In this document: positions 50,777-55,617 of the stretch, in pieces | How positions within the stretch are numbered: position 1 is the stretch's first letter | Layout of the letters: every line of letters starts with the position of its first letter | Source: a phage | Sequence record: PX104380.1 | DNA length: 64,000 nt | Strand: one strand, 5' to 3' | The notes under the pieces: model-generated | Databases searched by the model: none | Seen by the model: the letters and a program-made list of their open reading frames with translations, nothing else | Told to the model about the DNA's origin: nothing | Position numbers and translations under genes: made by a program

Positions 50777-51019
50777 TCAAATAGACTTTTTCACAATTTT
50801 CCAATCAGCTTTAAACTGATCGACGTCAGAGTGATAAATCCAAAATCCTGCGCTTTCACCGTCTTCATAAAGCGGACACCCATCACATTCATCTTCCCAT
50901 CCCATACCACGTAAAAGATGTTCAGCTTTTTCAACAAGTTCAGAATCTTTACCGATGATATTAAAATACCATTTACCTCTAACTTCTGAATCTTTGATGC
51001 TTTGGCGTTGTAATCTCAT
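50777..51019 (-). CDS. hypothetical protein, 80 aa
   Basis: ATG 51019 with SD GAGGAG; ORF track start is an upstream GTG inside the promoter. Confidence 0.5.
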   Translation of the reverse strand: MRLQRQSIKDSEVRGKWYFNIIGKDSELVEKAEHLLRGMGWEDECDGCPLYEDGESAGFWIYHSDVDQFKADWKIVKKSI

Positions 51020-51048
51020 TTTATTCTCCTCATGTAGTTGATAGGGTA

Positions 51049-51078
51049 ATAGTATCACACTACTACCCTACCGTAAAC
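51049..51078 (-). promoter_or_regulatory. T4-type early promoter (GTTTAC-N18-TACTAT)
   Basis: -35 fused to stop TAG of the upstream gene; -10 flanked by short inverted repeat GGGTA / TACCC. Confidence 0.5.
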
Positions 51079-51443
51079 TACTTTTTGAAAGTTTTTCGCA
51101 AAAGTTCAATGATTTCATCTACATTGTTTTCATCTACAATGCAGTGAATTTTTGTTACGCCAGAAACCGGGTCTTTGACTTCATCTTTTTCAGAAGTCGG
51201 TTCTTTATACTCACGAAAACAATGAAATTCGTCTTCACAAACGTTAAAGTAAAAATGCTTTCCATTTGCGCATTCAATGTGTTTTATTACTCTAAATCCA
51301 TCAACAAAGAAAGCTTCTTTAACTTCAAACCATCCGCCATTTTCTTGAATAATTTTAACTATTGCTGAATTAGAACGTGGGCAATAATTAATAAATGTAT
51401 CAATAAGTCTTGGAACAAGTTCATACTTTTTACCGATATACAT
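51078..51443 (-). CDS. hypothetical protein, 121 aa
   Basis: SD GAGGA. Confidence 0.55.
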   Translation of the reverse strand: MYIGKKYELVPRLIDTFINYCPRSNSAIVKIIQENGGWFEVKEAFFVDGFRVIKHIECANGKHFYFNVCEDEFHCFREYKEPTSEKDEVKDPVSGVTKIHCIVDENNVDEIIELLRKTFKK

Positions 51444-51487
51444 TATGTTTTCCTCATTTTAACGGGGCTGTAATAGCCCCTTGATAA

Positions 51488-51715
51488 TTATTGTTCAATC
51501 AATCCCATGTAAAATTCTGCGTCTTCAGAATCCATACCATCACAATATTCATTAGCCATAAAGCGGGTGAGGTCTTCAAGAGGACCTTCAATAACGATTT
51601 GAATACTCCAAAACTTAGAATCTTGCACGCTTGTGATACTAAGTTCAGGATAACGATTACGAATAATTTCTTCGATATATTCAAAATCAACGATGTCAAT
51701 ATCAACTTTAGCCAT
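51488..51715 (-). CDS. hypothetical protein, 75 aa
   Basis: ATG 51715 with SD AAGAGGA; ORF track start would read through the gene 32 terminator. Confidence 0.5.
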
Positions 51716-51758
51716 ATTATTTTCCTCTTTAATCATCAGCAGTATTGCCGATAGTTGT

Positions 51759-51788
51759 ATAGTACCATGGAAGGACAAGGATGTAAAC
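51759..51788 (-). promoter_or_regulatory. T4-type early promoter (GTTTAC-N18-TACTAT)
   Basis: lies between the gene 32 terminator and the 75-aa ORF. Confidence 0.5.
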
Positions 51789-51804
51789 CGTTTTGTGAAA
51801 AAAT

Positions 51805-51839
51805 TTTTGAAATAAAAAAAGGGGACCCTAGAGGTCCCC
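51805..51839 (-). terminator. rho-independent terminator 3' of gene 32
   Basis: hairpin GGGGACC-UCUAG-GGUCCCC (51821-51839) followed by UUUUUUUAUUU. Confidence 0.65.
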
Positions 51840-51861
51840 AATTAATTAGTAATATAATCTA

Positions 51862-52770
51862 TTAAAGGTCATTCAAAAGGTCATCTAGGTCCGTGTCATC
51901 AGCACTAGATGAACTGCCAGAGCTTGAGCTCATAAAATCATCTTCAGTTTTTGTATTGAAGTCATCAACATTGAATGCATCCAAATCATCAGCAACTTTA
52001 TCAGCTTTCTTAGCAGCAGTTGCAGCAGCACCGCCCATCACAGCAGTTCCCATAACTTGACCGAATTTAGTGCTCAGTTCTTCAAACGATTTGAATTTAT
52101 CTTTAGAAGTCATTTCAGAAAGGTCAACCATTTGTTCGAACAGTTCTTTCTGGAAAGATTCATCGTCAATGTTTGGAATCGCAGATTGATTCAGGAATTT
52201 AGATTCGTCGTAGTTACTAAAACCAGAAACTTGTTTAACTTTCAGTACAAAGTTAGCACCTTCCCACGGACAAGTTACATCAACCGGAGTTTCACCCATT
52301 TCAACATCAACTGCAATCATTGCATTGATTTTATCCCAGATTTTCTTACCGAAACGGTATTTAAATACTTTACCTTCGTTTTCTGGAGTAGCTGGGTCTT
52401 TTACAACAAGAATGTTAGCCCAGTAAGAAGTTTTGCGTTTAACAAGACTGTACTCTTTATTGTCAGTGTTGTACAGATCATTTTTACTGATGTATTGACA
52501 TACTGGGCAAGAATCGTAATCACCGTGGGTAGATGAACATGTTTCAATATACCATTTACCATTTTTCTTGAAACCGTGATTTACAAGAATTGCGAATGGT
52601 GCTTGTTCATCATTTTTAGACGGAAGAAAACGAATTACTGCTTGACCGTTACCCGCATTATCGAGTTTCAGTTTCCACTCGCCTTTATCTTCAGAAGAAA
52701 AACCACCTTTATTGCCATTCAGTTTAGCCATTTGTGCAGCGAGTTCAGCAGTAGATTTACGTTTAAACAT
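51862..52770 (-). CDS. 32: single-stranded DNA-binding protein gp32
   Basis: 302 aa; zinc-binding His/Cys cluster in [15 protein letters not shown]; acidic Ser/Asp-rich C-terminus. Confidence 0.97.
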
Positions 52771-52831
52771 TTTATTTCCTTTTTAACTTAATTTAATTAA
52801 CAGTTGGTGCTATGACACTTTACCTCATAGC
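52771..52831 (-). promoter_or_regulatory. gene 32 autoregulatory translational operator (pseudoknot plus AU-rich leader)
   Basis: 7-bp stem GCUAUGA / UCAUAGC with loop GGU able to pair with downstream ACC; then UUAAUUAAAUUAAGUUAAAAAGGAAAUAAAAUG. Confidence 0.55.
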
Positions 52832-53454
52832 TGGCATAATTTGCAATACTCTGGGTCTTCGAGAGGTATCCAACCTGAGTTGAAATACTTTACCATCGAT
52901 TTAGCAGTTGTATCAGTTATATTTATATTACCTTTAACTCTTCGCCATCCAGGAGTTTTACCGTACAGATTAGAAGATAATAACACATAATTCTCGTAAG
53001 CAATATGAGATAATTTCCAAGACTCTATATTAGCTCGTGATGTTTTCCAAGGTCTAAAATCGTCACGGTTCATATAATTAGCCAATCTCATATGCTCTCT
53101 AACTTCCGGGTCTTTGGCTGGATGAGTTTCACCACTCACACCAAATCCGCCGCCAGCATATACCAGATTAAAATAGTCTGGATTATCTCTGGCATTTACT
53201 TCAAGTTGGTATTTTCGTTCTGCTTCAATAACATCCAAGCCATCATCAATTTGAATTATTTTAACGCTCGGTTTTTGAAGCATTACCGCATTCAAAAATC
53301 TTTTTTGTTTACATGAACTCCAATATTCCTTTCCGGAAGAGTCATATATTATTCCGTTCTCAAATGAGCAATTTAATTTACTACCGATATAGTAGTATGG
53401 CGGAGTCTTATTTTTGACACGGTCTTCAAATGTAAACCAATATACTATATTCAT
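52825..53454 (-). CDS. segG: GIY-YIG-like homing endonuclease (segG position)
   Basis: 209 aa between genes 59 and 32; N-terminal IVYWFTF...YYYIGSK resembles a GIY-YIG motif; no SD; stop codon inside the gene 32 operator. Confidence 0.6.
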   Translation of the reverse strand: MNIVYWFTFEDRVKNKTPPYYYIGSKLNCSFENGIIYDSSGKEYWSSCKQKRFLNAVMLQKPSVKIIQIDDGLDVIEAERKYQLEVNARDNPDYFNLVYAGGGFGVSGETHPAKDPEVREHMRLANYMNRDDFRPWKTSRANIESWKLSHIAYENYVLLSSNLYGKTPGWRRVKGNINITDTTAKSMVKYFNSGWIPLEDPEYCKLCQL

Positions 53455-53455
53455 A

Positions 53456-54109
53456 TCAATACTTACAAGATTTCACAGTTTCAATGAAAACATTTTTAGC
53501 TTTCTGTGAATCAATATTTAAAATTTTTCTATAAGCCTTTAACTTTATAGAATAATTATTCCAGACTAAATTATCAGTCTGTTCATCATGTTTATCAATT
53601 ATATTTAAAAATGAATCAAGCAAAATAAACGTTTCAAACGAAATTATGTTCGACTGAAGCAGTTTAAAAATATAACTTGATTGAACTTTTGGATTATATT
53701 CAAAGATTTCTTTAAAAGCAGAAACTTCAACTTTCTTACTAAAATAATAAATGTTGCGAATATCTTCTTCAAACTTAAATTTAATTTGCTTTAAGCGTCC
53801 GATATATTCACGATAAAACACAAGTGCATCAGCGTCAGAGATATCACCAATCCAAGCATCTTGGTTAGCAACCAAATTACTTATAAAGATTAAAGCAAGT
53901 TCCTTTAATTTATATTTTTCTGATAACTTCTGGAAAAAATACTTATCCCTTCGCTTTTGATAAGCGGCATCAGACACCCGCATGCACCAATTATACTTAA
54001 TAACATCATACTTTCCATTCATATGTTGTTTTATCATTAAGTATAATTTATAAACTGATTTACCATCAATGTATCTTTCACCACCAGCAGGCATGCGGAG
54101 TTTAATCAT
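53456..54109 (-). CDS. 59: helicase loader gp59
   Basis: 217 aa; ATGA overlap with gene 33. Confidence 0.95.
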   Translation of the reverse strand: MIKLRMPAGGERYIDGKSVYKLYLMIKQHMNGKYDVIKYNWCMRVSDAAYQKRRDKYFFQKLSEKYKLKELALIFISNLVANQDAWIGDISDADALVFYREYIGRLKQIKFKFEEDIRNIYYFSKKVEVSAFKEIFEYNPKVQSSYIFKLLQSNIISFETFILLDSFLNIIDKHDEQTDNLVWNNYSIKLKAYRKILNIDSQKAKNVFIETVKSCKY

Positions 54110-54444
54110 AGCAGAAAATCTAATGTATTAGTTTTTTCACAACGAACAACAGAAGGACGTAAAAGATTTTCGTCAATAGCTTCCGACTGAATTTTTTCAA
54201 TTATACCCGAAGGAATAAATTTAGCAAATTGAGTTTCAGGAATAGAGTTTTCTTCCAAGAATGCTGTTGTAGCTTCAAGATAACTCATTCCAAACTCTTC
54301 TACCATTTTTTCAATAATAAATCCATTTTCTTGACGATCAAGAAGCTTTGCTATTTCATCCTTTTCTTTCTTGATTGAAAGTTCTTTTTCTGAAAGCCCG
54401 GCCTCATCGACCGGGCGAATATCATTTAGAGAAAACTGTGTCAT
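54106..54444 (-). CDS. 33: late transcription accessory protein gp33
   Basis: 112 aa from ATG 54444 (ORF track starts at TTG 54453); overlaps dsbA 3' end. Confidence 0.9.
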   Translation of the reverse strand: MTQFSLNDIRPVDEAGLSEKELSIKKEKDEIAKLLDRQENGFIIEKMVEEFGMSYLEATTAFLEENSIPETQFAKFIPSGIIEKIQSEAIDENLLRPSVVRCEKTNTLDFLL

Positions 54445-54691
54445 AAAGTTCAACTACCTCTTCAGTTTCAGCTTCAAACACATCACGGTTATCTTTATGA
54501 TACAAAGCTAATAGACGATTAAACATCTTGCCATCAACACCAAGTTCATCTTTAGCACGAATTCGAATATCTTTAATCAGTTCATTATAACCGGAAATTT
54601 TCAGTTTATGATCAGATGCTTCTTTAATAAATTTAGCCAAGTCTTCGCCGTGGATAGCTTCATCAAATTCAACCATTTCTTTTTTAGCCAT
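54422..54691 (-). CDS. dsbA: DsbA, dsDNA-binding late transcription protein
   Basis: 89 aa; SD GAGGT. Confidence 0.9.
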   Translation of the reverse strand: MAKKEMVEFDEAIHGEDLAKFIKEASDHKLKISGYNELIKDIRIRAKDELGVDGKMFNRLLALYHKDNRDVFEAETEEVVELYDTVFSK

Positions 54692-54699
54692 TATTCACC

Positions 54700-55617
54700 T
54701 CAAAATTCATTAATGCTATTAGTTAATTTAGAAAGACCCGCTTTTACAAAATATGAATAAATTTTGCCACGCGGTGGTAATTTATATGAATTATAGTAAT
54801 TCACAATGTTTGAAGCAATATTATCAGGAATATAATCAAAATCAATTAGAACTAAATTTTCTTTATAACGATTATATTCAGATTCTGTAAGAAGCACCTT
54901 AGCTTGCTCACGGTCATTAGCAATAGCTTCAACGATTGAAGTTTTCATTGAAGGAGTTCGTTCACCTTCAACTCTGGTAAACCAAAAGTCAGATCGTACT
55001 TTAACTGAAGCAACGTTATCCTTTTTGTCGCCTTTAAGGATTTTAGTCATACAGTCAATTTCAGCAGAACCGCTTTTAATTTTAACCCATTTCTTATGCA
55101 TCGGTGACCATTGCTTAACATTTGGGTATTTGTGAAGCTGTGTAAAGTCACCATCCGATGAAATGATTAAAATCTTGTGTCCTTCTAAAGAGAATTTTTT
55201 AACAAGAACAGCAATGTGGTCATCTGCTTCATACTTATCAATATCCATAACAATGTATGGCATATAAGCTTTCAATTCATCTATAACTTTATGACTGGAT
55301 TCAAAATAACCTTCCCAGTCCCAAGTAGATTCTTCTCGTGCTTTTCCACGGTTTTTCTTGTAATAGTAAGCAAAATCACGACGCCAGTATCCAGATTTCG
55401 CGTTATCAATACACAGTACAATTTTAGTGTATCCAAGCGTTTTTGCTTTTTTGACATTAAACTTAATTGAGTTCAATATCAAATGACGAACCATTGATAA
55501 ATTAATTTTTTCTTTATCTGGGAAGTTTACTAAAGCAGTTGAAAGCGCAATTTGACTAAAGTCAATAAAGCAAATTCCTTCTTTGTAATCTTCATCCAGC
55601 ATCATTTCTAAATCCAT
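54700..55617 (-). CDS. rnh: RNase H (5'-3' exonuclease, FEN family)
   Basis: 305 aa from ATG 55617 with SD GAGG (ORF track starts at TTG 55632); acidic active-site clusters DDH and SSDGDF. Confidence 0.93.
   Translation of the reverse strand: MDLEMMLDEDYKEGICFIDFSQIALSTALVNFPDKEKINLSMVRHLILNSIKFNVKKAKTLGYTKIVLCIDNAKSGYWRRDFAYYYKKNRGKAREESTWDWEGYFESSHKVIDELKAYMPYIVMDIDKYEADDHIAVLVKKFSLEGHKILIISSDGDFTQLHKYPNVKQWSPMHKKWVKIKSGSAEIDCMTKILKGDKKDNVASVKVRSDFWFTRVEGERTPSMKTSIVEAIANDREQAKVLLTESEYNRYKENLVLIDFDYIPDNIASNIVNYYNSYKLPPRGKIYSYFVKAGLSKLTNSINEF

Follow-up and report, generated by a model that had tools for sequence, protein, structure and literature searches.

Genes and signals around the gene 32 leader

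The region described here belongs to a 64,000-nucleotide stretch of phage DNA (PX104380.1), which as a whole is referred to as the window. Judged from its sequence, the stretch is a Tequatrovirus with approximately 98% identity to T4. In the 2.4 kb around the candidate gene 32 operator, identity to T4 and the nearest relatives (NBEco003, T4, RB55, RB59, Sf24 and others) was 97.8-98.1%, and the gene order was identical. The corresponding genes are labelled 33, 59, SegG and 32 in the T4 GenBank record. The features located in this region are listed in Table 1. The structured element of the operator is a pseudoknot at 52836-52809 on the minus strand, equivalent to positions -67 to -40 of T4. It sits in the 5' leader of the gp32 gene, with the AUG at 52770 and the last base of the element at -39.

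Table 1. Features of the gene 59-segG-gene 32 region (positions in the window, in order of transcription)
Feature	Position	Strand	Basis
Gene 59 (helicase loader), 217 aa	53456..54109	-	ORF list; Pfam T4_Gp59_N (E 1e-53) and T4_Gp59_C (E 1e-52); T4 annotation
Gene 59 stop UGA	53458-53456	-	sequence
segG homing endonuclease gene, 209 aa	52825..53454	-	206/210 (98%) identical to T4 SegG; PHROG 7504 'homing endonuclease', E 1.6e-131
TATAAATA, T4 late-promoter consensus inside segG; -157..-150 from gene 32 AUG	52920..52927	-	pattern search
AAUUAU, equivalent of T4 RNase E site -71 (about -70 here, near 52840)	52836..52841	-	alignment to T4
Stem 1, 5' arm UGCC, within segG coding sequence	52833..52836	-	identical to T4; covaries with 52821-52824
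Loop 1, single A	52832	-	invariant in 10/10 leaders (alignment A3)
Stem 2, 5' arm GCUAUGA, holding the segG stop UGA	52825..52831	-	sequence; covariation
Stem 1, 3' arm GGUA	52821..52824	-	covariation
Loop AAGUG, crossing stem 1	52816..52820	-	sequence
Stem 2, 3' arm UCAUAGC	52809..52815	-	sequence; covariation
AACUGU hexamer just 3' of the pseudoknot	52800..52805	-	conserved in T4-like gene 32 leaders
A/U-rich tract with UUAA(A) repeats	52771..52808	-	sequence; gp32 cooperative-spreading function from PMC535899
Shine-Dalgarno AAGGAAA of gene 32	52781-52775	-	sequence
Gene 32, single-stranded-DNA-binding protein, 302 aa	51862..52770	-	Pfam gp32 PF08804 (E 1.6e-66); T4 annotation
Terminator 3' of gene 32: GC-rich hairpin, then U run	51821..51839	-	sequence

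Concerning the reading frame between genes 59 and 32, the initial annotation had described a segG-like ORF of 209 aa that starts 2 nt after the gp59 stop and is not preceded by a Shine-Dalgarno sequence. The ORF indeed encodes the orthologue of T4 SegG. The junction reads UGA U AUG, leaving 1 base between the gp59 stop and the segG ATG (53454-53452), and no AGGA/GGAG core was found in the 20 nt before this ATG (…AAAUCUUGUAAGUAUUGAU). With its start 1 nt downstream of that stop and no Shine-Dalgarno sequence, segG is probably translated by termination-reinitiation behind gp59, and only at a low level. A search of SegG (window 52828-53454) detected no GIY-YIG or any other Pfam family, even at E values up to 10. 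The assignment of SegG to the GIY-YIG class therefore rests on the literature, where a table lists it as such (PMC2988022). A note in the T4 record makes the same assignment.

The segG gene also carries signals that serve its neighbour. Gene 32 has its middle and late promoters within segG (Edgell, Gibb and Belfort 2010, PMC2988022). The same study lists segG among promoter-less cassettes and suggests that RNase E processing lowers segG transcript levels. In some relatives segG looks decayed. In one (L004, 1818-2451) the gene reads as two ORFs of 64 and 174 aa, and in another (L140, from PEC04, 278-910) only 153 aa are annotated; both have an intact 3' end, T4-type pseudoknot and leader. Such copies fit the notion that segG is protected from clean loss by the gene 32 promoters embedded in it. 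On the plus strand, we noticed a sigma-70-like promoter at 52812-52840 (ATGACA, 17-nt spacer, CATAAT, TG extension, 10/12 matches), which overlaps the pseudoknot and is directed into antisense segG. This match may be due to chance, as the region contains fewer promoter-like sites than its shuffles.

Topology of the pseudoknot and covariation of its stems

The gene 32 operator is among the oldest examples of translational autoregulation. For the window leader, the initial annotation had proposed a 7-bp stem (GCUAUGA/UCAUAGC), a GGU in the loop that pairs with the following ACC, and an unstructured tract further 3', an arrangement taken to be that of the T4 gp32 autoregulatory operator. The stem is present (52831-52825 / 52815-52809), and the tract could be read directly from the sequence. 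It is A/U-rich, contains UUAAA repeats, one of which reads UUAAG, and extends over the ribosome-binding site to the gene 32 AUG (UUAAUUAAAUUAAGUUAAAAAGGAAAUAAA); only a weak alternative hairpin was predicted on folding 52808-52771. The likeness to the T4 operator also held, as the knot, located in the gp32 leader, is identical in sequence to T4 -67 to -40. The proposed partner of the loop, however, proved to be incorrect. The element is an H-type pseudoknot with a stem 1 of 4-5 bp, a loop 1 of 1 nt and a stem 2 of 7 bp, approximately 28 nt in total, and the loop GGU pairs with UGCC upstream of the hairpin. In the literature, the pseudoknot is described as a '~28-nucleotide' structure (Borjac-Natour et al., PMC535899) and placed 67 nt upstream of the AUG (Uzan and Miller 2010, PMC3014915).

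The pairing was examined by comparison among phages. Gene 32 loci were gathered from IMG/VR with three gp32 queries, and their leaders were read for a compact layout consisting of 4-5 nt, an A, 7 nt, the complement of the first 4-5 nt, a loop of 3-7 nt and the complement of the 7 nt. This gave 10 distinct leaders with a compact knot, whose sequences are related to one another. The alignment used (A3) was made without the 5' flanks and was anchored by hand on stem 2; as the columns of stem 1 and stem 2 are contiguous, there is no freedom of register. A MAFFT version including the flanks (A2) introduced gaps into stem 1 and was discarded.

Stem 1 reads UGCC/GGUA in the T4-type leader and UGACC/GGUCA in the T2-type leader, with the same stem 2 (GCUAUGA/UCAUAGC) in both. 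Other leaders differ in both stems: AUACC/GGUAU with GCUACGA/UCGUAGC (L013), GUCC/GGAC with GGUGCAA/UUGCAUC (L016), AUGCC/GGCAU with GGUGUGA/UCACAUC (L018), ACCU/AGGU with GUUAUCA/UGAUAAC (L090), and GUCC/GGAC with GUUGCAA/UUGCAAC (L106). Across the 10 leaders, 95% of the cells of the canonical structure were paired, a value that rose to 100% for stem 2 and for the inner four pairs of stem 1. Both-sided, compensatory changes were found in 8 of the 12 canonical pairs, among them three of the four inner pairs of stem 1 and four of the seven pairs of stem 2, so that covariation supports the 7-bp stem predicted earlier. The covariation score of the canonical structure was reached by none of 500 shuffles, and slid registers of the structure dropped to 23-50% paired.

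The same leaders allowed an evaluation of the fold in which the hairpin GCUAUGA/UCAUAGC becomes a pseudoknot through base pairs between its loop GGU and the ACC directly after the stem. In terms of pseudoknot stereochemistry, an ACC without a linker would have to span the 7-bp helix to reach loop bases about 20 Angstrom away, which is sterically implausible. GGU and ACC are complementary in the window, in T4 and in T2-type leaders, and the three pairs form in 9/10, 7/10 and 4/10 leaders, respectively. Nevertheless, only 66.7% of the cells of this helix were paired across the 10 leaders, with 0 compensatory changes, and all departures were mismatches, while the inner four pairs with the upstream strand were paired throughout. 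Three leaders (L018, L019 and L106) have AAC in place of ACC, and the loops of L016, L027 and L106 read GGA yet pair perfectly with the upstream strand. The knot of the literature, at -67 to -40, also takes in the upstream strand. We consider pairing of the loop with the downstream ACC to be very improbable.

With UGCC as the true partner of the loop, the element starts at 52836, and more of segG is involved than had been stated. The earlier coordinates (52771-52831) were right in that the element overlaps the 3' end of segG, but they began 5 nt too far downstream. As had been noted, the stop codon lies inside the stem: UGA (52827-52825) forms the final three bases of GCUAUGA, the 5' arm of stem 2. 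The overlap is not confined to the stop. It covers approximately 12 nt, from U(-66) to A(-55), and the terminal codons of segG, (UUA) UGC CAG CUA UGA, extend into the pseudoknot.

We also considered that the hairpin might be a chance product of an AT-rich leader that has neither a pseudoknot nor a function. Shuffling the 80-nt leader produced a perfect 7-bp hairpin in 7% of cases, and the window contains on average 0.21 of them per 80 nt. Single-sequence folding, a method that cannot model pseudoknots, recovered the 7-bp hairpin with an unremarkable z-score of -1.1. In an Rfam scan of 51000-55000 at a permissive threshold, no match reached the gathering score of any family. As the hairpin alone is not beyond chance, the case for the structure rests on the comparison among phages and on the T4 literature. 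Both point the other way: the two stems covary strongly across diverged phages, which already refutes a chance origin, and the element is identical to the footprinted and mutationally defined T4 operator. A chance hairpin thus has practically no probability left. The best match in the Rfam scan was DUF2815 RNA (RF03084; 52768-52825, minus strand), with 20.3 bits against a gathering score of 41.2 and an E value of 2.2. It was driven by the UUAAAAAGGAAAUAA…AUG ribosome-binding region and is probably due to chance, though DUF2815 proteins are phage-associated.

Gene 32 leaders of T4 and other T4-like phages

Taken together with the gene order, these results indicate that the element is most probably the canonical T4-type gene 32 translational operator in a T4-like phage, a reading to which we assign a probability of roughly 0.9. 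Alignment of the leader with that of T4 (141 nt, window 52760-52900) revealed 3 differences, none of them within the pseudoknot. The first is a G to A change two bases 5' of AAUUAU, the putative RNase E site, which lies in the AAA (Lys205) codon of segG, 4 nt before the pseudoknot; Glu205 of T4 SegG is thereby replaced by Lys. The second is an A to G change in the third UUAAA repeat, and the third is the loss of one A before the AUG, which shortens the spacer by 1 nt. The T4 operator (McPheeters, Stormo and Gold 1988; Shamoo et al. 1993, via PMC535899) otherwise shares with the window the knot itself, the UUAAA-rich tract, the Shine-Dalgarno sequence, the flanking genes and the overlap with segG. 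Earlier publications already cover the operator, the pseudoknot, the segG overlap (2004), the embedded promoters and RNase E processing, and the window phage adds only the three point differences to the known T4 system.

The pseudoknot of T2/T6 gene 32 (NMR structure, PDB 2TPK, cited in PMC3014915), represented here by leaders L002 and L005, shares stem 2, the single-A loop 1 and the downstream tract with the window. It differs in stem 1, which is UGACC/GGUCA (5 bp) rather than UGCC/GGUA, and in the second loop, with 7 nt rather than 5 nt. These phages do not have segG; their pseudoknot is intergenic, and the late promoter TATAAATA lies directly upstream of it. The RB69 operator (Borjac-Natour, Petrov and Karam 2004, PMC535899) likewise consists of a knot and an unstructured tract, and has been experimentally probed and footprinted. 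In contrast to the window, RB69 has no segG and its stem sequences are different; L016, L027 and L106 are comparable variants.

Several further features of the leaders were noted. Between the knot and the Shine-Dalgarno sequence, segG-bearing Tequatroviruses (L140-L143, L003 and L004) have 2 to 4 AUUAA/UUAAA units; the window (52782-52803) has 3, one of which is mutated to UUAAG. Many enterobacterial T4-like phages have no compact knot (L006-L012, L014, L015, L017, L020, L021, L023, L024, L114-L122 and L133). In L006-L012, L014 and L015, gp59 ends 10-18 nt before the gene 32 AUG, and the leader is largely gp59 coding sequence; in L017, L020, L021, L023 and L024 the gap between gp59 and gene 32 is 27-66 nt. 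Such knot-less leaders agree with RB49, which has been reported to have no knot (PMC535899). A larger or differently spaced knot, seen by eye and missed by the compact-knot scan, may be present at about -95..-45 in L025/L026 (UGACA/UGUCA and GGUGUAG/CUACAUC in L025) and at about -100..-40 in L127/L129 (CUCUUAU/AUAAGAG and GGUGUAC/GUACAUC in L127).

A second conserved sequence in these leaders is the hexamer AACUGU. We counted it from -70 to -1 of gene 32 in loci L002-L027 and L085-L133. It was present in 36 of the 39 distinct T4-like leaders, and the 59 copies found compare with about 2.2 expected from the background of the loci. Across the whole window, the two strands contain 37 and 28 copies against about 22 expected, at most a mild excess, and the strong enrichment is therefore specific to the leaders. 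The usual context is A-rich, AAAACUGU(U/A)AA. In knot-less phages, 3-4 copies are found 10-13 nt apart, some of them in the C-terminal codons of gp59 and in all three frames. A literature search for AACUGU together with gp32 found nothing. This unexplained motif may deserve more attention than the overlap between the operator and segG.

Origin and consequences of the segG overlap

Phages that do not carry segG keep the pseudoknot. In L002 and L005, which have a T2-type stem 1, it is retained in the spacer between genes 59 and 32, including the UGA in an identical stem 2. In these leaders gp59 stops 99 nt before the AUG. Homology between the segG-less sequence and the window resumes at query position 67, corresponding to window position 52834, inside the 5' arm of stem 1. 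As the knot is present in segG-less phages and homology resumes at this point, segG must owe its stop and its last ~3 codons to sequence that is found independently of it. The segG-knot junction was matched over at least 80% of a 170-nt probe in 141 phage records, and the gp59-knot junction of the T2 type was present in 357; together these account for essentially all of the approximately 500 Tequatrovirus matches. The T4-type stem 1 and loop were found in 8/8 segG-bearing leaders inspected (the window, T4, L003, L004, PEC04, SfPhi01, KMB22 and ACG-C40). Linkage between segG and the T4-type knot is expected, as co-conversion occurs during SegG-driven homing (PMC2988022).

Borjac-Natour et al. 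(2004, PMC535899) pointed out, both in the legend to Figure 3 and in the Discussion, that the T4 pseudoknot overlaps ORF32.1 (segG), and they proposed segG to be a chimera extended into the pseudoknot of the recipient. Our comparisons suggest a corresponding course of events. A free-standing homing endonuclease cassette would have inserted into the spacer between genes 59 and 32, with its reading frame crossing the cassette boundary into the pre-existing pseudoknot and ending at the UGA that stem 2 already supplied. The overlap would then be a historical by-product. Other cassettes of T4, segA, segE, mobB and mobC, resemble segG in that they displaced a host promoter, carry the promoters of the downstream gene, are expressed from upstream transcripts, have no translation-initiation region of their own and are subject to RNase E processing (PMC2988022). 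What distinguishes segG from these cassettes is that its ORF additionally reads into the structured RNA operator of the downstream gene.

In T4 and RB69, gp32 that is in excess over ssDNA nucleates on the pseudoknot and then spreads cooperatively 3' over the UUAAA/UAAA tract, occluding the ribosome-binding site (PMC535899). By analogy with these two phages, for which binding and self-repression have been shown in the literature, gp32 presumably acts in the same way at the window leader. Free gp32 on the knot would spread over the Shine-Dalgarno sequence and the AUG, and would stop its own translation once ssDNA is saturated. According to the literature, RNase E cleaves every species of gene 32 mRNA at -71, a site 4 nt 5' of the pseudoknot; the RNA before the cut decays rapidly, and the processed message is of unusual stability (PMC3014915). 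The operator would therefore act mostly on RNA that no longer carries segG. In the window phage, a cut at the equivalent site would turn segG RNA into a non-stop RNA, devoid of its stop and of the last four sense codons, and would separate the stable, autoregulated gene 32 mRNA from it.

Could the overlap itself be used for regulation, with ribosomes terminating on segG melting the knot, or bound gp32 hindering the completion or termination of SegG? Taking into account the general geometry of the ribosome, the segG stop codon and both 5' arms fit one footprint, and on an unprocessed transcript a ribosome terminating at the UGA would hold both arms and melt the knot. In the genomes inspected, segG is always linked to the T4-type knot allele, and the decayed copies in L004 and PEC04 retain the 3' end. 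On the other hand, co-conversion during homing already accounts for the linkage, and the gene 32 promoters inside segG for the preserved 3' end (PMC2988022). The segG gene, without a Shine-Dalgarno sequence, is probably rarely translated, and cleavage at -71 is reported for every gene 32 mRNA species, the portion 5' of the cut decaying rapidly (PMC3014915). Moreover, the 357 segG-less Tequatrovirus records have no overlap, and the two segG-less leaders that were read, L002 and L005, carry essentially the same operator. We thus regard a regulatory use of the overlap as unlikely, compared with its origin as a by-product of insertion. The more specific proposal, that gp32 on the knot gates completion or termination of SegG on unprocessed transcripts or that terminating ribosomes transiently derepress gene 32, appears quite unlikely. 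If it were true, SegG would be made preferentially when ssDNA titrates gp32, at the time when recombination-dependent homing can succeed.

The initial annotation had spoken of endonuclease expression as entangled with gp32 autoregulation. This holds as a fact at the level of the sequence; RNase E processing probably restricts any functional entanglement. SegG synthesis and gp32 autoregulation may plausibly influence each other, and direct cross-talk between SegG synthesis and gp32 repression is probably minor, given the low level at which SegG would be made and the separation of segG from gene 32 mRNA by RNase E.

What the present analysis provides is a corrected topology of the pseudoknot in this leader, together with comparative confirmation of both stems in diverged T4-like phages. 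By borrowing its last codons and its stop from a pre-existing knot, segG is an example of how a selfish endonuclease comes to resist deletion.
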